Shown here in pieces: positions 29,752 to 58,600 of a DNA stretch of 64,000 nucleotides. This DNA is from Albugo candida (Eukaryota): NCBI GenBank assembly GCA_040437565.1, contig JBDOQK010000031.1:124001-188000 (forward strand). The letters run 5' to 3'. The notes below the pieces were generated by a model that did no database searches, was not told the origin of the DNA, and saw nothing but the letters and a program-made list of their open reading frames with translations. Both the position numbers and the translations under genes were made by a program. The stretch's first letter is position 1. Every line of letters starts with the position of its first letter.

Positions 29752-29999
29752 CTTTCATACATTTACATGTGATCCGATACAATTGTGGTACGTATCAAGT
29801 TATGATAGCCAATCCAAATCTGAAGNNNNNNNNNNNNNNNNNNNNNNNNNNNNNNNNNNNNNNNNNNNNNNNNNNNNNNNNNNNNNNNNNNNNNNNNNNN
29901 NNNNNNNNNNNNNNNNNNNNNNNNNCTTTCATACATTTACATGTGATCCGATACAAGTGTGGTACGTATCAAGTTATGGTAGCCAATCCAAATCTGAAG
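29752..29999. repeat. Gap-flanking duplication with 2 mismatches (29752-29825 vs 29926-29999)
   Basis: 74 bp repeated; T29783/G29957 and A29805/G29979 differ. Confidence 0.9.
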
Positions 30000-30024
30000 G
30001 ATACCGTCGCACAGACATAAAGTA

Positions 30025-34533: not shown

Positions 34534-37500
34534 TCACGTTGTATCCATGCAATCAGGTGATTCATTGTCATAATGTATGGTATCCTTAGCAAGAAAGAGG
34601 ATCTGTTCGAAAGCAACATTTTCGTGTTTGCCCCATAGCCTATGATCACGCCACTTTTGTTGAGGAAATTTTGGACTACCGATTCCGTGCAGCAGTTTTG
34701 TAACGTTGATGCTTGTCCAGACATCGCCACCGGTATCCGTCAAGAGTAATTCCTTGATGTCTTCGATAATAATGCGTCGCTTCTCAGCCGTTAATGCGGG
34801 AATCAAGTCCTCCATCAGTTTGCTACATTGTTCTTCGCCGTCGAAATATGAGGTCAATCGTTTCTCTAGATGTATCTGCCTCTCAATTTGCGCCGAATCG
34901 CTTCTAATATCAAAGAGATTGATCTGTTCCAATTCTTCTTGTGTCGAAATGGATGCTTCCCGGAAAATACTGTACAATGTCTCGAAGCGATTGACTTGGC
35001 GACGTTGTAGCTGTTCATGCTTACGATAGAGGCGAGACGTGACTAGAATCAGGGAGTTTTGAAGCTCTTGATGATCTCTGACAGTAAGCTCTATTTGTAT
35101 TCGACACGCCAGTTTTTCGGCTTGGAATCGACTTATTACACCTCTGGCACTGAACTCCTGCAAGGTATGCCAAAGTCGTTGCTCCATTGCTTCGACCTTT
35201 TCTTCTATCGCATACTCCGGAGAAGGCCCATATAAGTGCATTGCTGTTTCAAGGAGAGGGAATCTCAATATCAGTACTGACGTATATCCTTCATTGCGTC
35301 GTTCCACGTGTGCAACCTTGCTCAGTTTTCCTTGTTCTATAGCATCAATAATACGCATCAGAAAGCTGACGTCATCATCCCCATCATCCTTTGTTGAAAG
35401 CTTTGATGCTGGCAAATAAACTACACAGAGCAAACCACGTGGAGTAAATTCTGCATCCATCTTGAGACCTATGCTTTCCTCTGGAGCAGAGTCCAGCTCT
35501 AAATGGCAAAGCGCCAGAAAAGTTTGTATCATAGCTTTATTCATGTCGACAAACACCTCGAGCCAAGCCAATTCTAGATCGATCACAAGAAATTGGGAAG
35601 ACTCCTCTACGCTTGTACGAACAATCACACAATGCTCATCTGCAACTCTCAGTACGTCTGTGGTCAGCTCGTCAAATGAACGCTTGTGAAGTGCTTTCCG
35701 CGCCACCTGGCTCCCAAGCAAACTGAGTAGTGAAGCCAGTTGCGTCTCTTCTACGCTGCTGTGGAACAACAGAGAGCGTCTGGGTAACACTTCTTCGACA
35801 TAAAGGTAAGATATCCCGAATGCGTGCTTCTGATCGCGGCCAGCGCGACCGATTTGTTGCACATATGCTTCTATAGAAGACGGAAAATGATAATGGATAA
35901 CCCCACGAACATTCGGTTTATCAATTCCCATTCCAAATGCAATCGTAGCGACCATGACCTTGATTAAACCACGCTGGAACTGCGATCGAATTCTCGCCTT
36001 GATCGCTGAGTCGAGTCCAGCATGGAAAGATGCAATTCTGACCGACTTTTTCTTTGATAATGTCAATAAAGGTATGAACTGTTGCTCTAGAAGCATCGCC
36101 ACGTTATCTGCATCTCTTTGTCGATGAACATAGACCAAAAGACCACCTCGGTTTGATTTGTTCTCGAAAAACTGGTGCATTAGCATAATCAAGTGGTCGA
36201 TTCGCTCTTCCTCAGATCCCACACGAACGATGATGATCGAGAAATTCGGTCGATACCACGGTAGACTCATAACCGCGCTTTCAGCTTCCTTGGGTTTGAC
36301 GTCGTGACAACGCTCTCTTCGCTGCTCGATTTGTGTGAGGATATCGAGTGTTACGCGCTTCGAAGCCGTCGCAGTCAGTGCAAGGATACAATCCGCACGA
36401 GGGAAAATCGTGTCGCACAAGCGTAAGAAACTCGGACGAAAATAGTGAGACCACTCTGAGATACAATGCGCTTCATCGACGCACACCAATGAGACAGTGA
36501 CGTTGCTCAAAGAGAGCAAATGCAAAAACGATTTTGTGATTGCTCGTTCGGGCGAAACGTAAATCAATTTGAGCTCTTTTCGATACAGCCGATCCAACAT
36601 TGAGACATAATCAGTCTTTCGCATTGAGTTCGCACTTGATAGTATCGTTGCATGTTGTTTTATCAAAGATGGTAAGTGATCGTATTGATCTTGCATGAGT
36701 GCAATCAGCGGTGAGATTACGATTGTGATACCAGCAAGAAATAAGACCGGAAATTGATAACATAATGATTTTCCGGCTCCAGTTGGAAGAATAAGAACAG
36801 CATCTTTCTTGTCGAGAACACGATCGATTGCCCAAAGCTGACATTGGCGAAAATTCTGATGACCAAAGACAACTTTGAGATTGTGTATCAAGCTTTCATT
36901 CTGAGACTGTATAGAGTCATGCGTCTGCGTTGGTAGCAGACCCAGCTTCTTGGAGGCTATTGCTTTGTCACAACAATCGTGTCTGACCCAATCCTTGCAT
37001 TTATTGACGAGTTGCTTGATCGCAAAGGGAAAATAATCGTCCTCCCAAAGGAAAAAATTACACTGCCCTTCTGCAACGTGATGCGGGCAAGTGAAAAAGC
37101 ACTTTCCATGATTCACATTTTTTTTCTTCACCGTAGAGAGTTTGCATTGAAGCATGTGATAGCAACGAGGAGATGGCGCAGAGTATGCGGCTTGATCGAT
37201 AGAGGGTGAAGAAGATGGTGACGTTTTGTTTGACGTCGATACGACCCTGGTGCATTCGTACAAAAAGTAACTTACATCATCGACGATGACTTCTTCTTGG
37301 CAACCTTTCTGTAGAATGGGCTCAGTTTTCCCTTGATTCACCTCCACACAATCATCTACAAAATCACTGCTACTTTCCTCAATGGATAGAGTGTTGGGCA
37401 AAGTATCATCCCAATTCATCGATGATGCGCGCATGTAAGCTGGAACCTCGCGAGGTGTACGCGATGAACGACCGTGACGGCGCTTCATATTGAGACGAAT

Positions 37501-38106
37501 AAAATTTCCATGCTTTGGGATCGTACGTGATACTTTGCCGTCCGAGTACTGAAGACCGGAAGTGGGCATGTAGCGGTAACCATGCACTTTCGTTGGCGAG
37601 TAATTATTGAACACAGACAAATCGAGATCCCCCAACACCGAACTTTTGGACTCATTTTTACCACGAGTAACTATCTCTTTCTTCGTCTCTTTTCTTGAAT
37701 GCTTCTTTAGGATGGTGGAAGAACGGCTAGTAGGCACAATCGATGCAGACATTTCCAAGTTCGCTATAATGCTGTCGGCAGGCTTGTCGACAACGTTATT
37801 TGTGCTATTTGAGTCATTTTTGTACAATTCGTTGTAAATTCTGTCGAAATCGTCCTCCAAGGGTATAGCCTTTTCTTCTCTTTTTACCGGACACGGAGGA
37901 ACTGCTACAGCATCAGCAATTTGTGTATCCGCTTTCTTTGCTCTCCTTTTTTTCAAAGCGCGATGTAACCATGAGGAATCATTTGACACTTTTGATGCCT
38001 GAGCATTATCGACATTCGTAGCTTTATGTAGTGTAGAGAGAATGGATCGCTTCTGTGTCCGTCCTGAAGATGCAAGCTGTGTAGCTGAGTGTTGCTGAGA
38101 CCGCAT
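34534..38106 (-). CDS. RECQL4-like ATP-dependent DNA helicase with a GRF zinc finger
   Basis: Intronless 1190 aa with LPTGAGKSLCYQ, VDEAHCISEWSHYFRP, LTATA, ATIAFGMGIDKPNVR and QQIGRAGRD. It also has the RECQL4-type NFIRLNMK motif and C-terminal LHGIGSPKFP...W. Confidence 0.92.
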   Translation of the reverse strand: MRSQQHSATQLASSGRTQKRSILSTLHKATNVDNAQASKVSNDSSWLHRALKKRRAKKADTQIADAVAVPPCPVKREEKAIPLEDDFDRIYNELYKNDSNSTNNVVDKPADSIIANLEMSASIVPTSRSSTILKKHSRKETKKEIVTRGKNESKSSVLGDLDLSVFNNYSPTKVHGYRYMPTSGLQYSDGKVSRTIPKHGNFIRLNMKRRHGRSSRTPREVPAYMRASSMNWDDTLPNTLSIEESSSDFVDDCVEVNQGKTEPILQKGCQEEVIVDDVSYFLYECTRVVSTSNKTSPSSSPSIDQAAYSAPSPRCYHMLQCKLSTVKKKNVNHGKCFFTCPHHVAEGQCNFFLWEDDYFPFAIKQLVNKCKDWVRHDCCDKAIASKKLGLLPTQTHDSIQSQNESLIHNLKVVFGHQNFRQCQLWAIDRVLDKKDAVLILPTGAGKSLCYQFPVLFLAGITIVISPLIALMQDQYDHLPSLIKQHATILSSANSMRKTDYVSMLDRLYRKELKLIYVSPERAITKSFLHLLSLSNVTVSLVCVDEAHCISEWSHYFRPSFLRLCDTIFPRADCILALTATASKRVTLDILTQIEQRRERCHDVKPKEAESAVMSLPWYRPNFSIIIVRVGSEEERIDHLIMLMHQFFENKSNRGGLLVYVHRQRDADNVAMLLEQQFIPLLTLSKKKSVRIASFHAGLDSAIKARIRSQFQRGLIKVMVATIAFGMGIDKPNVRGVIHYHFPSSIEAYVQQIGRAGRDQKHAFGISYLYVEEVLPRRSLLFHSSVEETQLASLLSLLGSQVARKALHKRSFDELTTDVLRVADEHCVIVRTSVEESSQFLVIDLELAWLEVFVDMNKAMIQTFLALCHLELDSAPEESIGLKMDAEFTPRGLLCVVYLPASKLSTKDDGDDDVSFLMRIIDAIEQGKLSKVAHVERRNEGYTSVLILRFPLLETAMHLYGPSPEYAIEEKVEAMEQRLWHTLQEFSARGVISRFQAEKLACRIQIELTVRDHQELQNSLILVTSRLYRKHEQLQRRQVNRFETLYSIFREASISTQEELEQINLFDIRSDSAQIERQIHLEKRLTSYFDGEEQCSKLMEDLIPALTAEKRRIIIEDIKELLLTDTGGDVWTSINVTKLLHGIGSPKFPQQKWRDHRLWGKHENVAFEQILFLAKDTIHYDNESPDCMDTT

Positions 38107-38553
38107 TACCCGACAATGGCGGCAACGTGGGTGATTGGATCAAAAGCTCGTTTGATGATAAAATGACTGCAAACTGCAGCTGTTACCATGCAGCTCGAAA
38201 TAAGTACGCTGACAAAGCACAACAGCAAGGTGATCGAAGGATCTATAGAGATTTGTTGATTAAATTTTATCAAAAATATTTGTAGCTGAAATGGATAGTT
38301 TAGCGGGTAAACAAAAAGCTCGAGTAGGCTTATACTTTGCGTCCTTTCCCCGTTGGGTCGAGAGCTTTATATCGGCGACATTGCCATCACTGTACTTCGC
38401 AGTCCAGGCTGCTCTTCGCTTACATTCCTTGTCCGATAAGTTGATGAGCGATCAAGTGAATAGGTGGTTGCTTCCGAGGCGCCGAGTCTCGCAGATAAAT
38501 GATACAGTTTTCAGAGACTGAGTAGTGCTCTAGTTGTGAACGGAGTTATGATG

Positions 38554-40011
38554 CTAGCTGAACATGGAGGGACTTTCGCTCACTCTCTCGTAATAGTGCA
38601 TCGTGCAAAGTCTGTCTCTTTGTGAATTTTTCGTACAATTTGGATGTGTGCACCGCCGTATCGCATTTTGTAGTCGTGTTAGTATGTCGTCATAGCTTTC
38701 GATATTTCCTGGTTGTTCTGATAGCTCCTTGGCTTGTCTGATGATTAAATTGCCATGAGTTCGACATAAATGATTGCGCTGAGAATGCTTCACGCAATCA
38801 GGAAAGCTGCACATTGTGTACGCACAGTTCAATCGACGCTTACTAATGTGCTTTGGTAAACGTCCTGTGGCCATCAGTAACTTCTCATGACCTCGACAAT
38901 ACCCGCGGCCTTGATCATTCTTGAAACATCCTAAAGTTTTACACACTGGAACATTCTGAGCTCGATTGGCCAAGACATCATGAAGAGCCTCCTTTCCAAG
39001 CGAGATATGCTTCGCGCACATCGAATACTTTGCAGCCGCCTTATCGCGACATCCTGGAAAGCCACAGGGCGCAACAATTACGTGCCGATTACAAAACTTT
39101 CCATATATTTGCAGAACCCTCGCTCGATTTGGACAGCTATGATAATCACATTGATGGTGATGACCTTCAATCGGTTTTTGGCGAAGATCGCACTCACTTT
39201 CTTCCTCATTAATTTCATTTGGTGATCCAAATGGGTCTTTTCTGTAGTGTGATGTGTGGCTTTGATACAAGTGATCGACATTGGGATGCAATTGGACCGG
39301 CCCTGGTTCTGTTGTTGCAAAGTACTCAGTGCCTACATTGGAATGACCAGAAGAATCATATCGAAATTTATACATCAGGTTATTGGTGACATTTTCCGGA
39401 TACGTCGCAGGGTGGTTGGATCGCGGAGGAACATTCTCCCCTGTTATTTCATTTCGTGTGCCCATGTATACCTTCTGATCAACTTCTCGCATTGGTACGA
39501 TCGTATCGTGAGCCCGGTTACCAGAAATATCTGACGTTATGTATTGTGAATCTAGTGGATTCAAAATAAAATCAGATCTTCCCGCTGTCGTTCCCCAGAA
39601 TGCTAAATTCCGTTCATCACTAAATGTAGTGTTTTGATCATTGCGTGCTACATACTGATGCGACGTCAGTGAAGGAATGTAGTCCGCACGAGCTCTTCTG
39701 TAGGTCTGTTGCACGCCGATAGGTAAATTTGCCCTCGCATCAACATGGGATGTATATATGATAGAATTTTGAGGTGGATAGTGCGATCTTGGGATCACGT
39801 CTTCGTTCATGATAGGAGCACGATAATCAATCCGATCTGTGTACGTGTCTGGGCCATGATCACCTTTATGTAGATTTTGCTTCATGACGGCGAAGCTTGA
39901 AGTTTTCAAATTCGGGATTGAAAGAGTTCTTCCAGTTTGATCCAAAATCAGTGTTCCGTGTGACCGATTCAAATTCACCTCAGTAGCAGAGACCGGTACG
40001 GTCCCATACAT
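38554..40011 (-). CDS. WRKY19-like zinc-finger repeat protein (putative transcription regulator; no WRKY DNA-binding motif)
   Basis: Five C-x4-C-x(9-13)-C-x2-H units in the C-terminal part and a low-complexity N-terminus. The first in-frame ATG is at 40011. Confidence 0.8.
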   Translation of the reverse strand: MYGTVPVSATEVNLNRSHGTLILDQTGRTLSIPNLKTSSFAVMKQNLHKGDHGPDTYTDRIDYRAPIMNEDVIPRSHYPPQNSIIYTSHVDARANLPIGVQQTYRRARADYIPSLTSHQYVARNDQNTTFSDERNLAFWGTTAGRSDFILNPLDSQYITSDISGNRAHDTIVPMREVDQKVYMGTRNEITGENVPPRSNHPATYPENVTNNLMYKFRYDSSGHSNVGTEYFATTEPGPVQLHPNVDHLYQSHTSHYRKDPFGSPNEINEEESECDLRQKPIEGHHHQCDYHSCPNRARVLQIYGKFCNRHVIVAPCGFPGCRDKAAAKYSMCAKHISLGKEALHDVLANRAQNVPVCKTLGCFKNDQGRGYCRGHEKLLMATGRLPKHISKRRLNCAYTMCSFPDCVKHSQRNHLCRTHGNLIIRQAKELSEQPGNIESYDDILTRLQNAIRRCTHPNCTKNSQRDRLCTMHYYERVSESPSMFS

Positions 40012-40980
40012 CTTGTGCACGTGGATGTGAAGAAAGGCGACAACAACGATTGTGTAGTAAATGTTTTGTATTGACTGAGGTCTCCCTGCAATCACTTTTA
40101 GTCAAGAATTTCGTTCAATCTTGCAGATGGTTTACAGGATCCTCTGCACCGAACTGAACTCGCTCTCGTTAAATGCCCAGAAATACGATAGGTGTGCTGA
40201 CTACCCTCTACGTCAGAAGAGGAGCGGACCCAATGTGTTCTTTTATCTGAACCTAAACAAAATCGAGGATTACACAGATCTGACTTGTGATTGTTAATGT
40301 AAAAGTCTGTTCTGCTGAGTAACACGGTTTAAGCTTTACAGTACATTATACGGTATTGAAGCATGTGTGCGTGCATTAGAATATTCAAGCTACTTTGCTA
40401 CTACCGATCACATCTGGCTAGGAAAATCCCTTTTATCTTCAAACAGTCATCATTTCTGAACTCGAACGCACACACTTGAGCCATCGAGGAACGGATCAAA
40501 GTAAGACAGGCTGGTTCTGATTCGTCAATCAGAAATAGTGATATCAATAAGTACTGTAGAGGCGTAGCTACTCGATCGATGTTGTTAATTCGAATAAGTA
40601 CCATCGAGCTCTGTTTCATATCAAAGGCGCCAAACTGCACCAAATATCCGGTATCCTCTTCTATGAAATTAAAAGGATTATCTTCGGGGGTATCGCATCT
40701 CTTTCTAATTCAAAATCCAGAGTCGGATTACAATAGAAAAGCAGGTGATCGACACAGATGATTCCAAGTATGTTCGCAGTATGCTTACATTCAAGCGCCT
40801 TTCTAGGGAGTAGGGTTACCAACTAGCAGAAGAGCATTCGTCATTTTATATGAGTTTTAACTATGCTACGAGGACTCGTACTTTTGATGAAAAACAGTCT
40901 AAGCTGTTTAGACAGGGTTCTTTAGCTTCATTCTAGCATGGCAGTAATGATTAAAATCAATTTTGGATTCTACAGATAAC

Positions 40981-42305: not shown

Positions 42306-43148
42306 CGAGTTAGTAGGTCCTAAATAAGGTGATACCCCAAACTTCAGATGCAGTCATCTTTCATGTGCTTTATTACATCCACTGAGTTTACTGTATGCGT
42401 CATTATCAAATGCCTCCGATTAAGAATTAAGAATGAGACCTCAATTCATGCAGTAAATCTTCTGCGAAGAGAATGACGTCTCGATTTTATATTGGAGAAT
42501 TACGCTTGTTAACAGTGTGGCAACATATTTGAATCCGTATGCAGTGGCGAGATGCAAACACTCTGCTATCATGCAGTAAGAAATCTATTGGTATACTTCC
42601 CCGGTTCTAAAGCTCTCTGTGAATAATATTCTAGCTGTGAGGAGCCTAGATTGCAACAAGATTGTAGTATTATCGTTCAACCAAACGCATATGGCGACGA
42701 AGTACGATCTTCAGTCCAAAGCACTCAATACTTCGTCTCAAGCATGGATACAGCGACAGCGTGCTAAAGTCGTGCCGACCGATATGATAGTGAAATGATC
42801 AGCTCACTACGTTACTGGCATTTGCAAGCTGGTTAATAAGGTTGTCTCCAAGTCATTTTGCTGTCTTACGTAAATAAAATGATCCAATTAGAGACTTGAA
42901 AGCCAGCTTTTTTTCCGAATCTACTGTAAGGATCCCAACGAGTCGTATGTGTAAGATAACGAGGACAATTCGGCATCCATTGCATTCCCTTGTAGTATAT
43001 GCCTTCAGTCGCACCCATTTTGCGACATAATAAATCTACAAGCCGCCTAACTCTTCATCACAGAGGAGCCACACAGCGTCACGCTCACCGCGCGATGAAG
43101 CATGTAATCAGCCATGACGATTTGTGTCAATTCTTAAGCGACTTTATC

Positions 43149-46100
43149 TCACTTGCGAATAGCAGAGCTCGATTTGAAAATGGCGATGGCGACAGCTGCT
43201 AGGTCCTCCCGGCAGCGAGTCTAATCATACATTCACATCACTTAGTCTCGCTGCCACACGTACGATAGTGACAAGACCTCTTTTATATGCTCTACATTGG
43301 CGCAGACTGCGCGATAGTGAACTAGATCCGAAGCTCCCATCGCAACTATCTGTAAATTGAGTGTGAAGGGGAGAATATTGTGTTAACAAATCCGTTACTA
43401 GTTTACCTCTGCGCTCATCATAGCTTTTCCATACGTTTTCCATATAAGGCTGGTAAGCTGTACAAACACGCTTGATAAACTCACAACAATTAAATGTTGT
43501 TCAAAAAGAAAAATGTACCCTCCGCTTTCTTCTTTTACTGCCTAATAAGATTCCAAAATCTTCGTAAAAACTATGTAGATATTCTGGAGAGCAACTTCTT
43601 TTCAAGTTCTGACAAAGTAATTGTCTCTCTTGGTCATTACTCTACTCTCAGGGACACATAAGCATGTTTGCAAATACAATGTGATCAATCGACCACGTAC
43701 CACTTTATCAGGGCCACAATCGAAGTTGTCATGCTCTGGAACGAACGATGGTGATTTGCTAATGCTCCGCTTGCTAATGAAAGCAGCTCGCAAAAAGCTA
43801 CTTTGGTCCCCAGCTTCACTTTTTCTCTGCGCTGGGCTTCGTTCATTTTCCAGCATTCGCTTCTCCTCTTCTACTAGAATCTACGAATCACAACAACCTC
43901 GTAGCATATACGGCGAAATTCTTGGAGATATTATAACAGGCTCACATTCAGATTGAAGAAATTCGGAGTATCAAAGAGAAGCCAGAACTTAGCTCGATAA
44001 TATATTGATACATCCCGACTTTTCCAAAGATCGAAAATTCTCGCCCGGGTTTGCTGGAATGCTTGCACCATTTCCCTATAGAGAGTTCAACTTGAGGCTT
44101 GTAAACTGTATAAGAAGTGCATTCTCGTACTTCTGTGAATGCCTTCGGGAGATGCATCCACGGTGAATGCTCTGCAATTGGACGCAAGAAGATCGCCATT
44201 GTTGTAATCTTTTCCTGGTCATTCTTCCGCGCCAAATCGCTTGGAGACGACCAACGCTGAAGCAGATCTTGTGCAAGCGAGATTTTAACAGAAATTGCCT
44301 CATAAAAGACTGAAGTTTTCGTATCATATGGCGTTTCATGATCCACATTCGACGCTGTATACGCATCCGAAAAATAGCTTGAATTTTGATGACTGCCGTG
44401 CGAATTAAAATAAAGTGCATTCGGTGCCTACGGCCCTGCATCAAGCACTTAAATGAAAACGTTTGGCAAGCTTATAGAATGGAGAGAACCTTGGTCCATG
44501 TGATAACATAGCGCTGGAATGTTTTGAAAGCGAGTATTTGACTGAGATATCGCTTTCGTTGACGGCGCATCCGATAAAACGATTGAATCTGTCATAGTCA
44601 AAGTTGCGTAATTGTAGAAGACGCAAAAGTGGATACATCAACATCACGAACCTGAATGACTGATTTTCGTATCTCTTCCCATCCCGAATAACTAGCTGCA
44701 TTGGGTCGGAAAAAGGCGCTTTGATGGAAATGTAAGTCTTCTCGAATGATGCAAAGATTCCGTGGCTTGCGAACTATTCCGAATAGATTTCTATCCAACG
44801 CAAACATCGACGTTACTACCAAACTTCCCGATTATCATATACAGAGCACACTTTTTCAGCTTGGGAAAATAATTGTACTACATATTTGCGTCAGCCAAAC
44901 ACCATCTTGCGATAAACAAATCGAATCACCTTGTACCTTGTAAGTAATCCCTTCTGGAAGCCCAAAAGCGGATGGAGGAGGAGCCACGAAAGTTTCTTGT
45001 ATCTCTTCAGAGTTGTCCGTCAAAAAGCTACAATCATACTTTTTTTTTCCGATGGTCAAGGAGCGATTGAGCTTTTCATGGATTGACTGATCGAAAAATA
45101 ACACTTTTCCTGATTTCGCATTATCGGCACGTTCAGCACAGAAGCGCTGAAACATCTGCGTCGATAGTAATTGTGTCAAAAACGATTTCGTCCCATTGTC
45201 CGTTATCTCATGGAGAAATCCATCCGCATCAAATGAAGTCTTAGTGTAGAAGGCTTCATCATCATTTCGCTACAAACTCGCGTTTCGTAAAAAATGAAGA
45301 CACAGAGAAAGAAAAGCTTCCGTACCAGGTATTGAGGGTATTTTCGCAGCATACTAACAAAAAATCTCAAAAAGCTTCTCCGAATGCCATGCGTTGAGAA
45401 AGTTTGCGTTTCATTGTAATAACTATCCGTCAAAGATACCGTCGACCAGATATCTTCGTGTTTGTTGAGTGCATTTGGACTTGTGCTTGGCATCACACCT
45501 ACGTTAGGCGATTCCCCATGATAACTAGACGACGTAGACGCACGACTTCCTCTTTGAAAGCTTCGGTGGCGCAGCTGTTCTGTTTTTGAATCCAATGACG
45601 ATGGGGATGGAAGCTGCGACTTGGATGCGGGTGACGATGAATGCGATGACAAGTAAACAGGTGAAGGGGAAGTTACTCCTCGACTTCGTATGCTTTTTCC
45701 CACTTGCTGAGATACGTTGTTGGAGATGCGATGAGAGTTTGATTGAGCATGCAACCTGTTGTGTGGTAGCGTGTGCCCGTCTTCGACCACAAACGCATCG
45801 ATCGGGTTGATGTTGTCTTCATTTGCAAAAGCCTGGTTACAAACGAAATCTTAAATGCACGGTATTACTCTTCACAGACACTCACAAAATCGGCTTTGTT
45901 AACATCGGACGCGAATGGATCGAATATCTACATCAAGTCATTCCTTATGAAAGCTTCACAAGTAGCAAGATAATAAAACTTCATACGTTGCCATATTCCA
46001 AAAGCTTTGAGCGAAGCTTTTTCGCCTCTCGATCGGGCAGCTTCGGGAGTGTAATGGAAATGTCATCTTCATCCAAAGCTGGAATGACTCTAGATGCAGA

Positions 46101-47933
46101 ATAATGAATCCGGGCAGATTTGAGTACTCGTGACATACCGATTATGGTCCAGATCGACAAAGAATATCCCTCTCATCCTGCTTGACATTACTTTCAGCAT
46201 TGAAGCGTGCGCACCAATCAGAAACGGAACCGGAGCTTCAATCATGTCCCACATGGATAACGGAAGCACCGGTATGTAGACACCTTGCCACGAAAACGGA
46301 AACAACAGAGATAAAAGTGTCTCTGCAATCGGAGTCAGGATTGCAATATGTTTGGAGCACAGCACAACCTATCATGCTCATTAGTGTGGGCAATCGACAC
46401 CGATTAGGATGGAAACTTACTTTGTACTCCAAGATGATGCATGTGAAAATTGTAAGTATGTTGTTGATATCGAGCGTCCGAAAGAGCGGACGGAAGGAGT
46501 ACTGCCAAAGAGGGCCGTATGGGGAAATGCAGATAGAAAAAATATCAAAAGTACGTACATCAACCAGAGAAAATGTATTTTTCGGAGGCCTAAATATGGT
46601 ATGGATGTCTTCAGGAAAAGTTATCTGGACTTGAACTAGCCCTTTGGGAGGAACTGGTATCTCTGACACAAAATTGGTAATGTAGCGTTCCAGCGGCATC
46701 GGAGATTCGGATAACGTGACCCGATATATCTAAAATCCGCCCGACGTCAATAACTTTCATATATTATGTTGCAAAAGATGCTTCTCTGCTGCAACTCACC
46801 TGCCGGAGAAATTCCTGAAAAGTTGTAAAATACGGATAATGCGATAAGATTAGGATACATTTTGGACGATAAATTGTTCGCGTGTACGGGAGAGTACCTC
46901 CCTTGTTCAATACGTCAGCGCATACCGACAATTGCCTACATTTGTTCGAATCAAAATCGAATGAATATAAGCGATCATATAAAATCAATTTGGCTGACCC
47001 GTCTGACGTTTTGGTGAACAAAGATATCAACTCCAAAGGATGCAATTTCTCGTAAAACTTGAAGACTGAAGCATACAACTTGACACCATTGACATTCGTT
47101 AAAACAAAAGAGAAAGTTGTTGGAGCTTTGTATGTATTTAAGAGACGGTATCCCTCAGGAAACGAAAACTCTGGTATATGCGATAATAGGAATTCATCTT
47201 CGGCCATAGATTCCCGGGGAACCATATCAACTACCACAGGCACAAAATCAAGACTATCCAATGAGATAATTTGTGCTCCATCTTCCAAATGGCGCTGCTT
47301 GCCTCCAACCACGATAAAGTGATTTATGAAGCGTGTTTTATTTTCCGTCGTATTCTCCTTCGGTTTTTCTTTTTGCAATTCATCTGATTCATATTTTTCA
47401 TCTACCCAAAGTCTCGTTCCCAAACTTTCGTTGTTCTCAAATTCCTCTTGATCAGCGTGAAGTGCTAATCGATACTTCATCCGTATCAAATTCAATTGTC
47501 TCCAGTCATCAGTCAGGTGGCATGGGTCAAAATCGCTACTTTCGTTACCTCTACTTTTGGCCAGTAGCTCATAGTCAGCATTTACTTTCTTGTTGCCACC
47601 GAAACTGATCACTTGCTGAATTTCCTTCTCACTCCAGGTATCCAAATGCAATGATTTTATTCTGGAAGTGTACACACCAAGCTTTCGATGTAATCCAGCA
47701 CATTGAATACAAAGAAATACCCCCAGTGAAGAACTGACCCACACTGAATCCTGTAAGTGTGCATTGCAATCCGCACAGTGTTGATTTTCGAGCTCTGAAC
47801 GATAAAAATCCGTCAACTTACGCATTCGTCTCTGTTGATTTACCAGTGGCGATGCCGTAGCTCTATCAGATACTAATTCTGAGTCGCAAAATGTGGTGGA
47901 GCGGTATATAGGCTCAATTTGAGGCTGCAACAT
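43149..47933 (-). CDS. ArfGAP + uDENN/DENN/dDENN + IQ repeats + NACK-C (DUF3490)-like domain protein, multi-exon; 3' end uncertain
   Basis: CADC...CIQCAGLHRKLG...IKSLHLDTW (ArfGAP); FSFPEG, FSFVLT, PKCILILSHYPYF, LLFPFSWQGVYIPVLP and APVPFLIG (DENN); TQMFQRFCAER (dDENN); 5-6 IQ-like motifs. Confidence 0.85.
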
Positions 47934-48395
47934 CGTAGAGCTCCTGACCCACTCTGACTATGGTTTAAAATACCAGAATTAAAAAGGTATGAAACGCCTT
48001 ATGACGATACAGAATTTGTGCGATTTGCAGGAACCTCTAGCATTACATTCATGGGTCCGACCACGCAGTGAGGTATATCGTGTTTATAGTGTGCTTTAAT
48101 GGCAGAAACAATTGAGAATAATAAAACACAGCTTAGAATTCGAGGCTCCGAGCGTATAATTTGCATCGAGCAAGTGTTAAGAATTCTTTATTAAATACGT
48201 AGGAAGTTTAAGCGACACAAAGCAACACAAAATCACGTTTGAATCATGTAACTAAACGGATCCTACGGATCCTATCGAATAGTATCACGATCTTTGCCAC
48301 GCCTTTTCAGACATTTTTGGTGTCAGAAGGCATTTGGTGTGTCTATCCCGAGACCGTTTAGTTTTTTAATCTTACAAAATCGTGAGGTTGGCGAT

Positions 48396-50099
48396 ATGCA
48401 TCTTCTACCCCGTTTGAGTGTCTGGAGAATCTTCCTTGTATTCTCATCTTCGCAATTGTGTCTCGAAGGATATGAACGGTCGAGGAGTGCGGATGCTATA
48501 TTAACAGTTCCTGTCACGGTGGACGGAAATGTGGAAGATTTACGCTTGTTTGAGGGAGAGAGTTATGAAGATGCTGCAACGGCATTTGCTCGAACGAATG
48601 GGCTTATGAACTTGAAAGATCCAAACAAAGCTCAACAAATAGTTCAGCAGCTTTCGGGTATTCTGAAGGACCGATCGATGGCAATGCAATCAGCAGAGCC
48701 TACTCCAAGCGAGACCGAATCGGAGCGGACCGTGCAGCTCACAATTCCCTTAACGATTGACGGATCGTCCACACAATTAGTCAAGTACAAAGAAGAAAAC
48801 TCTCAAGATGCCGTGAATCGTTTTTTCTCAACTTTGACACTGACAGAGGATGTCAAGGCACAACTCGTTCCACAGCTGCTATCGTTGATTCAGACTCGGC
48901 TTGAGGAAATCCAAGTAAGAAAAGAAGAATTGTTCTCATTCACAGTCACCATAGACGGAAAGGATACGGTCGTTCGTCACTATCAAGACGGTAATCCGGA
49001 AGAAGAGGCCATGGATGTGTTACGAGCTCTGAATATGGATTTGATAACGATGCAGCATCTGGCACCGCAAATCAAAGCTGAAATAACAAAACGCTTGGGG
49101 ATGGGTGGATTATCGGAAGCTCAGTCACACGAGAATGTCATATCGGATTCTCATCGTGAGCTATTCACGGTCCAAGTTACGATCAATGGCATTGCAGCCG
49201 ATCTTGCACACAATGAAGGAGACACATTGGAGGAAACTGCATCATCGTTTCTGCATAAGCATGGAATCATTGATGAAGAAAGTGTTCAAACTTATATGCC
49301 CCAGTTGATTGATATTCTACGTGCACGACTTGATGCCTTACAAGTAAAACAAGAAGAATCAAGCCCTGTGGAGCCTACCTCACACGACCCAAAGTCACTT
49401 GTGGAGGAGCAAGCATTACCAGAGCCTTTTGTCATTATCAATGTACAGGTCGAAGATGGTCACGAGGCATTGCTTCGCTACTACGAAGGTGACGATATCA
49501 ATTTAACCGTGAAGCATTTCTTAGAATCCTTCAAGCTCGCAGATGATGAGATATATCAGCAAAATTTTCATCACTTGGTTACGCTTATCCAAGATCGTGT
49601 GAAAACAAGACTTGAAGAGCTATCACAAGCCGACAATTCCCGACATCCTACTGTGTTTACGGTGCCCGTGAGTTTGGGTGGTGTCGAGCACAACTTTGAG
49701 TATTATGAAGGGCAAGAGCCTTTGCATGCGATACGAACATTTTGTGATGAACGGCTCCAGACCTTCCGCGTCGATAACTCTATCGAGTTTGATAATGCAC
49801 AGATGCAGGAATGCGAAAACGTGCTAGTGTCTCACATGAAGAACATTTTGGAACAGCCCAGAGCGCGAGAGGAGCAGGATGCTGCCGGACATGCTGAGGA
49901 CACCACTCAACTCGATAAAGCGGAACTTCTTTTCACAATCGAAATTGATATTGGAGACTCACGAATTGCGCACCTCAAGTACCATCAAGGCCAGAATCCG
50001 ACCTCTGTGGCTGAAGCCTTTTGTGAAGAGTTCAAGATTGACGTAAAAAACGTCCCGATGCTTGTTGAAGCACTTGAAGGGCAGCTAACAAAGCTCTAA
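48396..50099 (+). CDS. Protein with seven tandem ~70-90-aa PFU-like repeats and a possible N-terminal targeting peptide
   Basis: Intronless ORF with a recurring pattern F-T-[IV]-x-[VI]-x-[IL]-[DN]-G...Y-[EQ]-G-x-x-[PL]-x3-[AV]-x2-F. ATG 48396 precedes a moderately hydrophobic segment. Confidence 0.8.
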   Translation: MHLLPRLSVWRIFLVFSSSQLCLEGYERSRSADAILTVPVTVDGNVEDLRLFEGESYEDAATAFARTNGLMNLKDPNKAQQIVQQLSGILKDRSMAMQSAEPTPSETESERTVQLTIPLTIDGSSTQLVKYKEENSQDAVNRFFSTLTLTEDVKAQLVPQLLSLIQTRLEEIQVRKEELFSFTVTIDGKDTVVRHYQDGNPEEEAMDVLRALNMDLITMQHLAPQIKAEITKRLGMGGLSEAQSHENVISDSHRELFTVQVTINGIAADLAHNEGDTLEETASSFLHKHGIIDEESVQTYMPQLIDILRARLDALQVKQEESSPVEPTSHDPKSLVEEQALPEPFVIINVQVEDGHEALLRYYEGDDINLTVKHFLESFKLADDEIYQQNFHHLVTLIQDRVKTRLEELSQADNSRHPTVFTVPVSLGGVEHNFEYYEGQEPLHAIRTFCDERLQTFRVDNSIEFDNAQMQECENVLVSHMKNILEQPRAREEQDAAGHAEDTTQLDKAELLFTIEIDIGDSRIAHLKYHQGQNPTSVAEAFCEEFKIDVKNVPMLVEALEGQLTKL

Positions 50100-50144: not shown

Positions 50145-52823
50145 TTATATCGCGTCTTCAAAATCATTTTCATCCAAGGAGTCCAATACTTCTGCTTTAC
50201 CTAGCTTTTTCAACTCTTCCTGAAGCCTTATCACACCAGAATGCGAGATAGAATTGTTGTTCAGATTTAAGCGACTAAGCTGAGGTAATCGCGGTATCAT
50301 CCATTTCGTAAGTGCTTTCGTTCCTTCCGAGTCGATCTCATTGCCATAAAACGATAAGTCCAGTATGGAGCCATTACATTGTGCTTTGTTTACAGCCAGC
50401 CATTCAGAGAACTCGGACAAACCATCCGAGGTAATCTCATTCTCCTCCAAAACAAGCATCTCAAGATGAGATTGCCTCGCAATCATGGGTGCGATAGCAA
50501 CCAATCCTTCATCTCCTAGTTCATTACCAGAAATGTCGAGATGTTGCAATGAGATTTTCGCCTCATTAATTGCTGTGAGAATTTGAACCAGCCCTTCTTG
50601 ACCCAGAGAAGCATCTCGAAGCTTCAAGAATTCCAATTCCTTTTGTCGACTAATGGCATCAGCCAAAGCCGATGCGCCTTCATGCTGAAAGGAGCAATCG
50701 CTGAGGTCCAAATACCTGAGACGCTTCATGTGAATGGCGATGCTACGCGCTAATTTTTCACTGGCTTCTAAACCAGCACGTGCACTAGCATAACGGAATG
50801 ACGTCAGGAAGCAGCAATGTTCCAGCATTTCAGCAACTGCTATGCAGCCACCAGGCCCACTCATATTATTGTAGAAATGAAATGTCTCCAGAGCCCACGC
50901 GGTTTTGGCCAGATTATCTTTCGGGTCGATTTGTAAAACCACTTCTTGCACGATAAATGAGGCGGCAGCGGCTGAAATGCCGTTATTGCAAAAGTATAGA
51001 TGACGAAGTCTTGGTTGTGGTTTTAACAAACTCAAACAAGCTCGAACGCCTTTCTCGCCTAGTGCATTATCGCTCAGATCGATTTCTTCGAGTTGTTGAG
51101 TACACAATGCGTCACAAACGATTTGAAGGACGCATAATGCTTCATCCTCAGGGCGACCCGCAATGATATCTGCCAAATCTGCTGCTTTGAGATTTACCAA
51201 TCGACTTAAGAAAAGCTCAACAAGCAGTTTGGCTCCATCGGCAGTGTAGCTTTTCCCTCGAAGAGCGATTTTGTCGTAGTGAAGAGGTTTCGATGCATCT
51301 TCGATACTGACACCATTAGTACTCAGTAGCTGCTTGACGCGAGCGGCGTCTACGACCTCTCTGGATTCATCCGTAAACTCAAACAAAGTATTGGTTTTGA
51401 CGAGAGAAATTTCTTGCATCAAAGCAGCCAAATCTTCTACTTCATCATCCTCTTTGACATTGGCGATCCCTTTGTCAACGGTATCGACTCTCTGATTATT
51501 TTTCAAAGATGCGACGATAGCTGTTACTGCTGCTTTTGAGAGATTGCTACCCTCCAGTTTCAAAGAATTTAAATGCTTTTTGGAGACACAAGCATTGATT
51601 AGCGCCAATGCACCTGCTTTCCTGATCCCGCAATTATTCATGTTTATCTTTGCTATTGCTGGAGTGACGTGTGCGCGAAGCAAAGTGCCAGCTAGTATTT
51701 GGGCTCCACGTAATCCAAAATTATTTTGCTCAAGTTCCAAAACTTCCAAGTGTTTCATCACAGGTAGAACCTCTACTAATTTCACCATACTCTCAGAATC
51801 AAGCTCATTCGCTGAGAGATCTAACACTTCTAACAATACACGCTTTTTGCACTTGAAAACTGAATCGAAAGCTTCAGCAATTGCAATCACTCCATTCATC
51901 TTGATACCACAATTACGTAACTTCAAATACTTCATTTGCACTTGCCTTTTCAACGCTTCACCGACGATGATAGCACCGTCGTCGCCGAGGATAGATCCAC
52001 TGAGGTCCAATTTTTTCAGATTGATCGTCGTAGACCTTTTGATACCATTAGCAATACATGATCCATCAAGCGTGGCATGCGTTGCTGAAAATCGAAAGTC
52101 ACATAAAAATGGCGAGCAGCTGAGAATTTCGCTTATAGCTTCCACACCATTATCGTTCAGATTGTTTTGAAAGTGAAGGGTCTCTAGACGAGTCGTACCA
52201 TTTTGTACAAGAATAACTTGGTCACGAATGAATTTTGCGTCTGCGGCAGACATTTCGCAATCACATAAATACAAATGTTTTAGATTTTGCTTGTTTTGCA
52301 ATAGTTTACAACATGTACGAGTGAGCATCTCGCCCAATGCATTGTGACTCAAATCTATACTGTTGACACTATTTGCGCATTCAAATGGATCACACAGCTG
52401 CTGTAGAATGTCCGCTACCGACTCTTTCGGGTGTCCAGCAGTGACATTATTGAGATCAACAATCTCCAGTTGACCAAGTAAATTGTTTTTGCTCATAAGG
52501 TTGACATATGCGGCAAATTGTTGTGCTGCTGCTAAATTGAGAGATTTGTTGCGCAATGAAATTTCGAGAATTGGATTCTTTAATTGTTCAAACGGCATGA
52601 ACGATTTCATCATATCGCATAATTGCGATTGATCGATGATCTCGCATTCAGAATCCGCGAACGCTACCCTTTGGAAAGATGTCTTAACATTAGCATTAGC
52701 GTTCATAATTTTCGATTTTGGAACATCCAGAACCATGGATTCGTAACAGTTAACAAACATGTCATAGCAACTGCGTTTTAATTTCAAAATTGCATATCTC
52801 CGACGCAATTCTTTTCTCGCCAT
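50145..52823 (-). CDS. Ran GTPase-activating protein with two tandem RanGAP LRR domains; true start may be ATG 52736 or 52706
   Basis: Second domain: ADIIAGRPEDEAL, IDLSDNALGEKGVRA, FYNNMSGPGG, ending LDSLDENDFED. The first domain is collinear but diverged (NNVTAGHPKES, IDLSHNALGE, FQNNLNDNG). Confidence 0.9.
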   Translation of the reverse strand: MARKELRRRYAILKLKRSCYDMFVNCYESMVLDVPKSKIMNANANVKTSFQRVAFADSECEIIDQSQLCDMMKSFMPFEQLKNPILEISLRNKSLNLAAAQQFAAYVNLMSKNNLLGQLEIVDLNNVTAGHPKESVADILQQLCDPFECANSVNSIDLSHNALGEMLTRTCCKLLQNKQNLKHLYLCDCEMSAADAKFIRDQVILVQNGTTRLETLHFQNNLNDNGVEAISEILSCSPFLCDFRFSATHATLDGSCIANGIKRSTTINLKKLDLSGSILGDDGAIIVGEALKRQVQMKYLKLRNCGIKMNGVIAIAEAFDSVFKCKKRVLLEVLDLSANELDSESMVKLVEVLPVMKHLEVLELEQNNFGLRGAQILAGTLLRAHVTPAIAKINMNNCGIRKAGALALINACVSKKHLNSLKLEGSNLSKAAVTAIVASLKNNQRVDTVDKGIANVKEDDEVEDLAALMQEISLVKTNTLFEFTDESREVVDAARVKQLLSTNGVSIEDASKPLHYDKIALRGKSYTADGAKLLVELFLSRLVNLKAADLADIIAGRPEDEALCVLQIVCDALCTQQLEEIDLSDNALGEKGVRACLSLLKPQPRLRHLYFCNNGISAAAASFIVQEVVLQIDPKDNLAKTAWALETFHFYNNMSGPGGCIAVAEMLEHCCFLTSFRYASARAGLEASEKLARSIAIHMKRLRYLDLSDCSFQHEGASALADAISRQKELEFLKLRDASLGQEGLVQILTAINEAKISLQHLDISGNELGDEGLVAIAPMIARQSHLEMLVLEENEITSDGLSEFSEWLAVNKAQCNGSILDLSFYGNEIDSEGTKALTKWMIPRLPQLSRLNLNNNSISHSGVIRLQEELKKLGKAEVLDSLDENDFEDAI

Positions 52824-54151
52824 GTCGACTGAAAGAGCACCACTCTCATCAAATGATAACACATCAGCAGTAAAATCTCAGGAATCAATACCTGCGTTCT
52901 TGTCTCCAGTGTCTAAACTTGAATTGGCACGTAAATATGCTGCTGACGAGCAACAAAAGCGAATTGAAGCTGCCAATGAGCGTTTAGTCAACCAATTAAA
53001 ACAGCGCTCAATAAAGCGAAAGAAAACCGAAACTCAGCTTGAAGAACATATACAGAAAAAGATGAAGAAAATCGTGACGACGGAACGACTGCATACATCA
53101 TATCTGAGTGAAGAAACGACAAATGACGCTGACTCGGAGGCTGAATCAGGGCCCAATTCAATGAGGGTCATCAGTCAGATACAGAGTACTGTCGTCTCAA
53201 ATGAGAAACCAGTACTTTCTGTGGATGGCGGTCAAGTGAGCATGGATTCTGATCAGCAACGTCTACCAGAGCCAGGTACGATTTGCCTCTAATGAGATCT
53301 CTCGAGCAATCTACTATCACAGAATCTCACTTTCTATTTCACTGAGTTAGTCGATCTCAGAAATGTTAGTGATATTAGCAGTTTGGAAACAGTAGAAGAT
53401 GAAGGTATCACTCGAACGTTGCTACGGTCTGTGTCGAATACATTCAGATGTATCATTTATCGTGCTTTAGTCAACCAACCGATTCAATGTTCATAGGGAG
53501 GCTAGAAAGAAGCTGGACCGAATAGCAGCCAATAGTGTATCGAATCATAGCTCTCCGACGAGTTTTCAAAGCCCGAGCAAAGCGGCTATGCTAGAAGACT
53601 TTGAAAAAAGTCATTCGCACAGCGATCCGAGTCAAAAAAAAGCAGGAACAGAGCTTCATCGGCCGTTGACCAACTATCATTTGAAACAAATGGGATACGC
53701 TGACAATGTCAACATATACGCTCCTATGCATGAACAGCAGTCGCAACTCAAGGAATTCGAAGCGAAGCAAACGCGAGTGGAACGTGATTGGAACATTCAC
53801 AAGAAGATTGAATTTCAGTCTCCAAATCCCAATGAAGATTCTGAGTACGATGATGAGGACTTCTTGTCGTACGAGGCAGATGATATGGAAGCATACACTA
53901 AAACATCAAAGAACGAGATAAGAGGATCGAATGCACATATGCAAACTCAACGGTATCTACCACAGCATTCAGAGCCATTGCAGCGCACTGAGCAATTGAA
54001 GAGGAGAAAAAATACGCGCTCATCTTCTCTGTGGTATGTACCATTATATATGATATCGTTATTTTTGATGATTCTAGCCATCATGCTCGCAACGGATGTT
54101 TTTGAGGAGTACCATAACAATTTCTGGTCTCTAATATTACAATATGTTTAG
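52822..54151 (+). CDS. Hypothetical protein: coiled-coil N-terminus, acidic middle, single C-terminal TM helix; multi-exon
   Basis: ORFs 52822..53292 and 53588..54151 lie on the same strand with GT-AG candidates between them. The C-terminal hydrophobic helix (LWYVPLYMISLFLMILAIMLA) follows a basic patch. Confidence 0.6.
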
Positions 54152-55652: not shown

Positions 55653-58600
55653 ATGGTCACTTTACGAGGAAAGAAAGCATACACAAGTGTGAAAACGCGA
55701 CCTGTGCGAGAAAAAAACACAGCCACGAGTAAAAAGAATTCCACGCGTGCAAATAAAAGACTCGATGCGATACCCAAACAAGAAAATATGGAGACTATCC
55801 CATCGGAAACCTCGCTTCACTTTGCGAATTTATCAAAAGAAGATCAATGGATTCGAATGATGCGATTTTTAGTGCGCTCCACCTTATTTCTGAACAACTC
55901 AACGTCAATACAAGCGATGAATCTGGAGTCTTGTGCGAAAGTATCATCTCATCGTGGAGGTACTCAAAGCTCAAACGAGGCAGAGCGGGCTCAGAATGCT
56001 CAGAATAAGAAAGCAACGGATGGAACATCTCCCATTCAATTTCTTTGTGACTCACTACTGGTTGCTCAGTGCCTCACTCCGAAAGAAAATAAGTTGGACG
56101 CTCATCAGATTATCGACAAAATGGACAGAAGTACGCGGAAACGCATATGTGGGGAGGTTTTCGGAGCTGATGAAATTGCTTACAGCTGTCGAGATTGCCA
56201 AGTCGACCCAACCTGTGTTATTTGTAATGATTGCTTCTTGCAAAGGTTTGGAAATTCCCGAGTTGAGCGCTTTTTCAGTTGATAATGAGCTTATTCTTGT
56301 TAGTGACCATACCGGACATGTCGTATATTTTCAAAGAACAGCGGCCGGTAGCTCATGTGATTGTGGTGATCCTCAGGTTCATTGCATGTCTAGCAGGTTA
56401 TCAATACTGTTTGCTGACATTGAATCTAGGCCTGGAAGCGAAGTGGGTTTTGCTGTAATCACGCTGGCATGGACGCTTTGGATGCAAGCACAATTGACGG
56501 TCGCATCTGGACCGACGCTTTGAAGTTTGACGGAAAGACAGGGAAGACATTTGCAAAGTGGAGTAAGCAACTAAATTTGACCACAGCAATGTGTCAAAAC
56601 GCTTTTGAAGTCATTGATTCGGTGATCGATCATGTGCATCAAACATTGATCGCGATCGAAAACGCTTTTGAATTGGCGGAAGCTTTTGAGCTTTTTTCTC
56701 GAGGCATACACAACAAGGCTATAGTCTCCACGATTGAACACACCACGTCAATATCACATACGCCGACTGGAAACACACCCAACATACGCGTCCAACCGAA
56801 TGACCACGTGCGAGGAAGGGTCGACGCCCAAGGAAAATCGGCTTTAAATCGCCCCGGTCAAGACAAGAGTAATTCACAAAATCAAAAATGTGAGCTATTT
56901 TACATACGCCTTCACAACGATGACGTACACACATACCACAAGGTAGAAGAAACACCAGCAATTGTTGAAGTGGACTTTAATTCTTTCTGACTGTATTGAA
57001 CAGGTCGCTAATACGCTATCGACCACATTTCAACTCTCCGAATCGGTGTCCACTCGAATAGTTGATTCGATCGATCGACACGGCGATGCGATAATTCGAC
57101 AGGATTTCCACATACTGGAGTGTCCCTACCCTGTTGCAGAATGTGCTTGGGCGACACTGAATGTGTCCGTGGCACCAGCCTGGTTAGATGAACAGATAGC
57201 ACAACTCGAATCTTTACTAGACTGGCTGTACAAGCTCATACGACGGTCTGATGGCTACGACGTTCTGGCCACACATGCCCTCTGTAAGCCGAGGAAAGTC
57301 TCATTGCGGACAGTCGAGGAGATATCGAGCATGTTTGACACTAATACGACTTTGCTGGATCTGATAAAGGCAGGCAATTTCGGTGTGCATCATCAGACTC
57401 GTAGCGTGTTTGAGAAAATGATTGGAAAAAAGTCGGTGCATACATGGGCTTACGAACTCGAGAAACAGATACGCTCTCGTTATGTCTTTTTCGGTAAAAG
57501 AGGCGACCAAGAGTCGACGAACGGACCTACCATTGCTTCAAAAGAAAAGCTCCAAAAGATTAAATGTAACAATCAGTTCATTAGCAGCTTTGTGGAACAC
57601 TTGGCAGAGACACCGGAGGAGGCACTTCAAACGAGTTCCGTCAATGTGAAAAAGATTCGGGATGGGTGCGAGGCTATTTTACAACATTACTACGTCGATA
57701 GAAATAAGGATGTCCCATTCCACTCAACGCTGGAGTTGTTGATGCGATACGATGCTGTCTTTCGCAAAAGAACCTCGGAGAATCTGCATCGGATTCTTCG
57801 TGAACTACTGCTGTGCTCCTCTATCTTTCGAGACAAGATGCTGAAGAACTACCTCTATGCGTATAAGCCAATGACAAAGTTTTATCTGCAAGGACTGGGG
57901 AACAGCAATGAAACAATATTTGATTTTGCAGTCCAGTTTCTGACCGACTCGAAACTTGTGCAAAAGTATACGAAGGCCGCAATACGACAAGAGGACGAAC
58001 AATGGAATGAAGAAAAATCGTTAATTTCGATACCTCATCGACGACGTCCAGAGATTATCAAGGTATTCCTGGATGCCCTCTACGCCACTTTGTTGATTGC
58101 GTCACAACCGAAAGCCGACACTGGGGAAAACATCGTCATAGCAGGATCGTTAGACCCAGAATTGACCGTGATCAGCAATCAAAAATACAAGGTGAGCTAT
58201 GTGATCATACTTTGCTACGATCACAACGCTGACAAAAGTTGGCTCGTTAGCATTGTGTGGACAATTTGGAATACGTGCTCAATGTCGGAGGAATCTCAAA
58301 TGAATTGGTTTGTGTCGAAGAAAATCTCACTTTGTGGCTTTCGTGTTTACGGATATTGCAGGTAAGTTGATTTCAAGAAAGAGTATGTGCACGTGATTAT
58401 GACTCGCTTGTGGTAATAGAATGGAGACGCCGAACGACGTCGGGGTCCTTGGGAAGCTCACGTTGAGTATGAATCAGATACCTGGCTGTCAATGTTTAAT
58501 CTCGGCATTCGAATGCATTCAATCTTTCCGGTTGCGTGGAGTCGGTTTGGTGCTAATGCACTCCATCAACATGAAATGACAATTCCTCAAATCTTCAAGG

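Follow-up and report, generated by a model that had tools for sequence, protein, structure and literature searches.

An ArfGAP, a DENN module, an IQ neck and a DUF3490 tail in one gene of Albugo candida: a putative Arf-off/Rab-on regulator of membrane traffic

Hand-offs of a membrane from Arf to Rab control are mostly known as the work of chains of separate proteins. What, then, is to be made of a gene that appears to place a putative catalyst for either step in the same polypeptide, and what would the rest of that polypeptide be for? The question is raised by a locus in a stretch of 64,000 nucleotides (nt) from the oomycete Albugo candida (assembly GCA_040437565.1, contig JBDOQK010000031.1, positions 124,001 to 188,000), which is called the window here and on which positions are counted unless another locus is named. 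On its minus strand, from 47933 to 43149, lies a gene whose product carries, in this order, an ArfGAP domain (a GTPase-activating protein, or GAP, module for Arf), the uDENN, DENN and dDENN parts of a module associated with guanine nucleotide exchange factors (GEFs) for Rabs, five IQ-like motifs and a tail of the DUF3490 type. Judged by its sequence, this product is probably, if far from certainly, a single-copy, vertically inherited regulator of membrane traffic in oomycetes and ochrophyte algae, which would turn Arf off and Rab on.

The first point to settle is that of the gene itself. It comprises 19 exons with 3735 nt of coding sequence, 1244 residues and one stop, and both its start codon at 47933 and its stop at 43151-43149 agree with the original prediction, made from the letters of the window. 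That prediction had also put ArfGAP and uDENN in the same open reading frame, and the two matches do share a stop-free frame (47957-46764) and both lie within exon 1. The gene is not one genomic open reading frame, however: a Pfam scan of the window frames finds the DENN, dDENN and IQ matches downstream in other genomic frames, the coding region being split by 18 GT-AG introns of 49-70 nt each that had gone unmentioned. Relatives aligned to the window by tblastn follow the same order with short gaps edged by GT and AG. When spliced from 48073 to 42870 the model measures 4154 nt, the exact length of a spliced contig of public run X1 that spans the gene. Spliced joints for 14 of the 18 introns are listed in contigs of runs X1, X2 and X9, while the other four are inferred from the record coordinates together with this agreement in length; the spliced contigs also fixed the in-frame intron at 46998-46936 and put one acceptor at 44436. 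These are short-read contigs whose RNA status is guessed or unlabelled, and the depths of X1 and X9 are identical and look like one data set, so that at most two libraries are represented. The transcribed leader holds four upstream ATGs, none of them in frame before the stop at 47958-47960. Between 43547 and 47917 the window and the public runs differ at eight exonic sites; six of these are nonsynonymous and none introduces a stop codon, which fits the long branch of the window protein described below, the numbers being small. With a spliced contig across the gene, 1244 open codons and an exon shared by ArfGAP and uDENN, a single polypeptide from one gene, as first predicted, is as good as certain. 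On the plus strand another spliced transcript, 42400-42814 (intron 42576-42634), ends 55 bases from the 3' end of the gene.

Fundamental to any action on Arf is the N-terminal domain. Its zinc finger is formed by Cys53, Cys56, Cys75 and Cys78 in CX2CX18CX2C spacing, with an arginine five residues on (CX2CX18CX2CX4R, residues 53-83), such that the catalytic Arg83 (47687-47685), which the prediction had described as intact, is present together with Trp65 and Asp98. Conservation was followed in an alignment of 27 rows, consisting of the window model and 26 relatives chosen from matches, mostly Phytophthora. Cys75 and Cys78 are kept in all 24 rows that have a residue there, and the Arg83 column contains arginine in 23 rows, serine in one and a gap in three (23 of the 24 rows with a residue); all oomycete rows, and that of the brown alga as well, retain the arginine and the zinc ligands. 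Going by these residues, the domain is probably active in oomycetes. The nearest solved structures are those of SMAP (PDB 2IQJ, 2CRR; expect value (E) 1e-18 against 4e-14 for ArfGAP1), from which the window domain differs by a zinc-finger spacer two residues longer. The tree of ArfGAP domains leaves nine of its 13 inner branches open, so that the likeness to SMAP stays a best match with no placement in a tree. Membership of the SMAP subfamily itself was rejected, as a consensus clathrin-box pattern has no match in the window protein model. The clathrin box is a feature of that subfamily according to the covered part of a review (PMC6724607), and none of the six ancient ArfGAP types is described in that part with a DENN module. 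Elsewhere in the genome the ArfGAP loci, read from frames, look like ArfGAP1, ArfGAP2/3, a BAR-PH-ArfGAP-ankyrin protein, a SMAP-like and a C2-bearing form; since these resemble the ancient types, the window ArfGAP is an extra one. One of them, L013, a short-domain ArfGAP with a tail rich in Met, Pro and Gly, is inferred to be the genome's own SMAP.

The putative Rab side of the protein is the DENN module, whose three parts are matched in the predicted order, all above cut-offs, both here and in full-length relatives. Conservation is highest in the central DENN (0.72) and in the stretch after dDENN (0.71), compared with 0.57 for the ArfGAP. The top fold matches are DENND1A and DENND1B, GEFs for Rab35 (PDB 3TW8, 6EKK), which share the full uDENN-DENN-dDENN module with the window protein (E 6e-19); as these are the sole classical DENN structures among the matches, this nearness is no proof of orthology. 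An Atlas search with the DENN part returned generic DENN clusters and no subfamily, and a first DENN tree had long-branch problems. What is it, then, that points to exchange activity? Seven DENND1B residues are needed for Rab35 binding, according to the covered part of PMC7812876. When these were mapped by hand through a phmmer alignment to 3TW8, the equivalents of I226, P242 and Q359 proved invariant across all 27 rows, and hydrophobic residues occupy the remaining four positions throughout (A/V/C, L/M, V/I/M and V/I). The retention of this DENND1B-type contact surface makes a Rab GEF the likely identity of the module, with a Rab8- or Rab1-type target as a guess. Candidate substrates read from frames of the genome include an Arf1-like protein, two Rab8-like proteins, Rab1, Rab11 and others. 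Three further DENN proteins of the same genome (L002, L003, L005) have long helical N-terminal parts that appear RGS-like by eye, possibly another unusual DENN layout.

Behind the DENN module comes the neck. All five IQ-like motifs quoted in the prediction are there, beginning at residues 902, 952, 975, 998 and 1021, the last four 23 residues apart, and a sixth, weaker site lies near residue 925. The IQ pattern matches five times in the 153-residue neck and nowhere else in the protein; shuffling gives a mean of 0.42 matches, and none of 10000 shuffles reaches five. Twenty-three residues is also the commonest motif interval (59 cases), and tandem IQ motifs about 23 residues apart make up the lever arms of myosin V/XI. 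Like those arms and the arrays of ASPM type, the neck has tandem IQ motifs on one helix; the window protein differs in having no motor head, no calponin domain and five or six sites. In the predicted model of a relative, of low overall confidence, the neck is one long helix. The neck exon weakly matches the myosin VI lever family (E 0.002), and its profile search returned 175 proteins, most with several matched stretches, which are generic IQ proteins with one ASPM-like by name. Binding of an EF-hand protein to the neck is very likely on these motifs. The genome holds intronless calmodulin-like genes. Five calmodulin-like loci lie within 20 kb at G000:C68:128759-148058, and the three that were read are intronless, encode 149 residues and differ mainly in the C-terminal lobe.

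The tail was predicted to resemble the C-terminus of NACK, and this is borne out. Of the tail exons, two give DUF3490 matches (E 6.9e-5 and 0.0027), neither of which reaches the curated cut-off alone, and the tails of the family match it (PF11995) in eight of eight cases, with a best E of 1e-17. The tail is predicted as a helical unit with a mean predicted local distance difference test score (pLDDT) of 74, with most blocks in its conserved halves scoring 82-94, and has a Lys/Arg run at residues 1175-1180. In PDB and viral libraries nothing matches its fold at E<=0.001 (the best VIA Z is 4.5), which does not show a new fold, and its sequence has no match in the PDB or the Atlas. HINKEL and NACK1 have DUF3490 as their C-terminal domain (PMC6385969, in the part covered), and the DUF3490 literature that was found consists, going by its listing, of plant or effector papers. 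With these kinesin-7 proteins the window protein shares a homologous C-terminal domain after a long helical stalk, but it has an IQ neck in place of a kinesin motor, and a variable insert splits its DUF3490. Pfam matches no kinesin motor domain in 12 relatives or in those window exons that were scanned, and membership of the NACK/HINKEL kinesin-7 proteins was rejected despite the tail. A tail-profile search returned 25 proteins, of which 24 have DENN and none belongs to a motor family, in a word-limited search that also missed the plant kinesins themselves.

How widely, then, is this layout spread? With the C-terminal half of a relative as query, 33 proteins were matched, 30 of the family and three generic IQ proteins. 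An ArfGAP accompanies DENN parts in 29 of the 30, and 24 of the 30 also carry DUF3490. The named sources are Phytophthora (P. infestans PITG_03240), Nothophytophthora, Plasmopara, Pythium, Globisporangium, Lagenidium, Aphanomyces, Thraustotheca and the brown alga Nemacystus, along with one marine-protist transcript, so that the architecture, for which a search across stramenopiles had been proposed, is found in oomycetes and a brown alga. Peronospora, Hyaloperonospora and Bremia are not named among the matches of searches too limited to show absence. The Phytophthora orthologue was not found in the flagellar gene lists of PMC3471859, a weak negative as identifiers are written differently there. 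The A. candida genome has one locus with a full match. In a 14-row tree built from the DENN-to-tail core the window protein groups with Phytophthora, Pythium and Lagenidium (98/98), the Saprolegniales Aphanomyces and Thraustotheca stand together (98/99), and Nemacystus forms its own group with three other proteins (95/98). The tree follows the expected kinship, and this fits plain descent.

The prediction had singled the locus out as the best candidate for an undescribed system, and here two things have to be kept apart: no description of an ArfGAP-DENN(-DUF3490) architecture was found in the literature searched, but every part belongs to a known family. Term look-ups in PMC2705460 (main text and two supplements) and in the covered parts of PMC3521125, PMC8923023, PMC13714605 and PMC5634486 turned up no fusion of ArfGAP with DENN; survey tables of ArfGAPs or of oomycete domain combinations may list the architecture. 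The relatives carry automatic database names such as 'putative Arf GTPase activating protein' or 'uDENN domain'. The verdict is of an undescribed architecture built from known families. Other proteins touch two small GTPases in one chain or complex, among them GAPVD1/RME-6 (a RasGAP with a Vps9 GEF), ARAP (an ArfGAP with a RhoGAP) and the Avl9 DENN GAPs, but none of them combines ArfGAP, DENN, IQ and DUF3490, the first two being set apart by the layouts just given. The protein would work as though a DENND1-type GEF had been fused to a SMAP-like GAP. DENND1 also links Arf and Rab, and its stimulation on Rab35 by Arf5 provides a precedent for an Arf acting on a DENN GEF (PMC7812876); the difference is that DENND1 is stimulated by binding Arf5, and no ArfGAP, IQ or DUF3490 is reported for it in the covered part of that source.

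On a Golgi or endosomal membrane the DENN module would load GTP on a Rab, while the N-terminal ArfGAP would turn Arf-GTP off on the same membrane. A carrier would in this way lose its Arf-held coat while gaining a Rab identity. With five or six calmodulin-type chains bound, the neck could become a stiff spacer some 20 nm long (134 residues x 0.15 nm), and a partner or an acidic surface would define the place where the DUF3490 tail anchors the protein. That both switches act in one step is slightly more likely than not. That calcium gates the protein is doubtful, and a main role in cell division or zoospore cleavage more doubtful still.

Several observations weigh against this picture or limit it. 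An obligatory Arf-to-Rab hand-off as the essence of the family is disfavoured, since two relatives have no ArfGAP and one has no catalytic arginine. The two come from a metagenome scan that gave seven loci, of which L084 and L085 include the upstream DNA of the gene: no ArfGAP match lies upstream in either, and both start at the same Met directly at uDENN. They carry DENN, dDENN and a DUF3490-like tail, with an IQ match in L085, and keep all three invariant GEF residues; in L085 about 600 AT-rich bases separate the family gene from a preceding Kelch-like gene. Being close kin they count as one lineage, and the core tree fits an ArfGAP never gained and one lost alike. The third relative is the algal transcript P0033, with serine for the catalytic arginine and a long insert in the zinc finger. 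Conservation counts overstate independence, as most of the 27 rows are Phytophthora. Of the oomycete members the window protein has evolved fastest (end branch 1.27), and its tail ends five residues past the last conserved helix, without the C-terminal extension of 43-189 residues seen in 24 of 26 relatives. The full-consensus glycine is present in just two of the five IQ motifs. For a relative modelled at full length the prediction is poor (mean pLDDT 50.7, predicted template modelling score 0.27) and uninformative on domain packing. Finally, the Rab partner cannot be named, because four of the seven contact residues differ from DENND1B.

These observations lend themselves to a different explanation, in which the protein is a Rab GEF on a lever and no hand-off is obligatory, the ArfGAP serving merely to target it by binding to Arf-GTP or a coat, or else being a passenger that can be dispensed with. 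The members that begin at uDENN, the loss of the arginine in P0033 and the lower conservation of the ArfGAP relative to the central DENN all speak for it. For a passenger, however, it is hard to explain that the oomycete rows without exception, and the brown alga too, have retained arginine and zinc ligands, and P0033 is a single transcript sequence; the explanation is unlikely overall. P0212 and P0211 have no ArfGAP because their sequences start late. Since the ArfGAP is absent or inactivated in some relatives and conservation is higher in DENN, the stable core is DENN-IQ-DUF3490, to which the ArfGAP is proposed to be an add-on that may be absent or inactive in some lineages.

A second explanation follows the prediction in seeing a calcium-gated switch for cytokinesis or zoospore cleavage, whereby calcium would alter the calmodulin-bound neck and free the catalytic head at a cleavage plane at which a NACK-type tail holds the protein. 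It gains circumstantial support from the position of DUF3490 at the end of HINKEL and NACK1 (PMC6385969), and from the requirement of plant cell-plate formation for both NACK kinesins and the putative Rab GEF SCD1 (PMC8774047, in the part covered). The best match outside the family is a slime-mould DENN-WD40 protein of SCD1-like layout (E 4e-86 to the family profile). SCD1 is itself a DENN-WD40 protein, and shares with the window protein the standing of a putative Rab GEF of the DENN kind. Against this, the genome has a separate locus with DENN followed by WD40 (G000:C7:419500-428500), so the window gene is not simply SCD1; neither the scanned window exons nor the full-length relatives show a WD40, and an SCD1 or DENN-WD40 identity was rejected. 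IQ necks are, moreover, often independent of calcium, with IQ motifs often holding calcium-free calmodulin as a structural light chain, and a role for DUF3490 in NACK was not found in the texts examined. This explanation is improbable.

Much less probable again is that the DENN module is an Arf GAP or a Rab effector of the Avl9/DENND6 kind, making the protein a double Arf brake. A preprint on Avl9 (10.64898/2026.01.05.697756) does caution, in the part covered, that monomeric DENN proteins should not be presumed GEFs, and describes for the Avl9 group an unconserved DENND1B GEF surface and a conserved arginine in the loop between longin strands 4 and 5. In the window family the GEF surface is conserved, and the best arginine column in that loop, placed by sequence and not by structure, reaches 14 of 27 rows, in Phytophthora-type rows only and absent from the window protein, Aphanomyces and the algae. 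Finally, an assembly error, or a pair of adjacent genes mistaken for a single one, would account for a genomic frame that breaks many times, for relatives' database models wrongly fused to neighbours (P0002) and for the fact that a contig by itself is no proof of a single transcript, but can practically be dismissed given that each break is a short GT-AG intron in an otherwise open spliced frame, that ArfGAP and uDENN share an exon, that an unspliced contig of run X6, with no joints, covers the whole stretch in one piece and that the domain order is the same from Phytophthora to the brown alga. Five database models of relatives (P0004, P0023, P0025, P0030 and P0002) run into other domains, SPRY in three and ribosomal L35Ae and F-box/LRR in P0002, and are probably wrongly joined neighbours.

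Table 1. Features of the ArfGAP-DENN gene in the window, listed along the transcript, and coordinates of two relatives without ArfGAP.
Feature	Position	Strand	Remarks
Transcribed leader	47934..48197	-	Spliced contigs extend to 48073 (X1) or 48197 (X2)
ArfGAP domain, residues 45-155	47469..47801	-	Pfam PF01412, E 1.9e-24, 86 bits against a cut-off of 28.7
uDENN / longin lobe	47055..47340	-	Pfam E 1.2e-10, residues 232-293; lobe begins near residue 199
Central DENN, exons 2-5, about residues 335-520	46090..46868	-	Pfam E 4.2e-11; six of seven DENND1B Rab-contact positions
Ser/Pro-rich insert between DENN and dDENN, about residues 591-705	45400..45780	-	Poorly conserved; low confidence in a relative's structure model
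dDENN	45087..45233	-	Pfam E 1.8e-8; Gln773 matches DENND1B Q359
Conserved stretch after dDENN, about residues 791-870	44740..45086	-	No Pfam match
IQ neck, residues 902-1035	44131..44588	-	Five IQ-like motifs; Pfam IQ E 5.2e-5
DUF3490-like tail	43149..44075	-	Two conserved halves flanking a variable insert
3' untranslated part	42870..43148	-	Covered by spliced contigs
Introns 1-9 (high-low)	46998-46936, 46799-46730, 46558-46502, 46420-46369, 46138-46090, 45986-45928, 45885-45833, 45325-45270, 44936-44878	-	
Introns 10-18 (high-low)	44851-44791, 44651-44589, 44489-44436, 44130-44076, 43945-43881, 43700-43642, 43518-43458, 43406-43350, 43277-43221	-	
Members without ArfGAP	L084:2235-5693, L085:1771-5080		Each beside a primase-like gene on the other strand

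Head to head with the gene, at 48396-50099 on the plus strand, is an intronless open reading frame of 567 residues with about six copies of a unit of 70-80 residues, the last of which matches PFU (E 1.8e-9); its N-terminus looks like a signal or membrane stretch, and its contig depth in X1 is high. Next to it on the minus strand (50145-52877) is a leucine-rich-repeat protein of 910 residues that gives the impression of two tandem RanGAP-type repeat blocks. On the other side lie, on the minus strand, a 515-residue protein with WRKY19-type zinc fingers (38554-40101, E 1.4e-9) and a RecQ-like helicase with a GRF zinc finger (34534-38139; DEAD, Helicase_C and GRF), which is presumably RecQ4-like. 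Further away are a ribonucleotide reductase small chain (15829-17016, minus), a fragment like the dynein assembly factor DNAAF5 (29998-30846, plus) and a UBR1/PRT6-type ligase (58420-63100, plus).

What does the finding mean for these organisms? With both putative catalysts in one chain, the order and the coupling of an Arf-to-Rab hand-off could be tested by point mutants and split constructs, for which the natural relatives that lack the ArfGAP or its arginine are ready controls; the single copy found and the shared layout in oomycetes and algae make the gene suited to knockout. The window protein brings an extra ArfGAP into a lineage whose traffic machinery is little studied, and presents DUF3490 in a second setting beyond the plant cytokinesis kinesins, in which the function of the domain may be easier to ask. 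At its boldest, and this is unlikely, the protein would be a switch in the shape of a motor, with an Arf-off/Rab-on head, a calmodulin-clad lever that serves as a calcium-released ruler of about 20 nm and a tail that docks at a landmark of NACK kinesins, where carriers would be converted in one step. If that were true, oomycetes and algae would possess a trafficking machine of a sort that has not been seen in animals or yeast, and DUF3490 would acquire a function beyond the plant kingdom.

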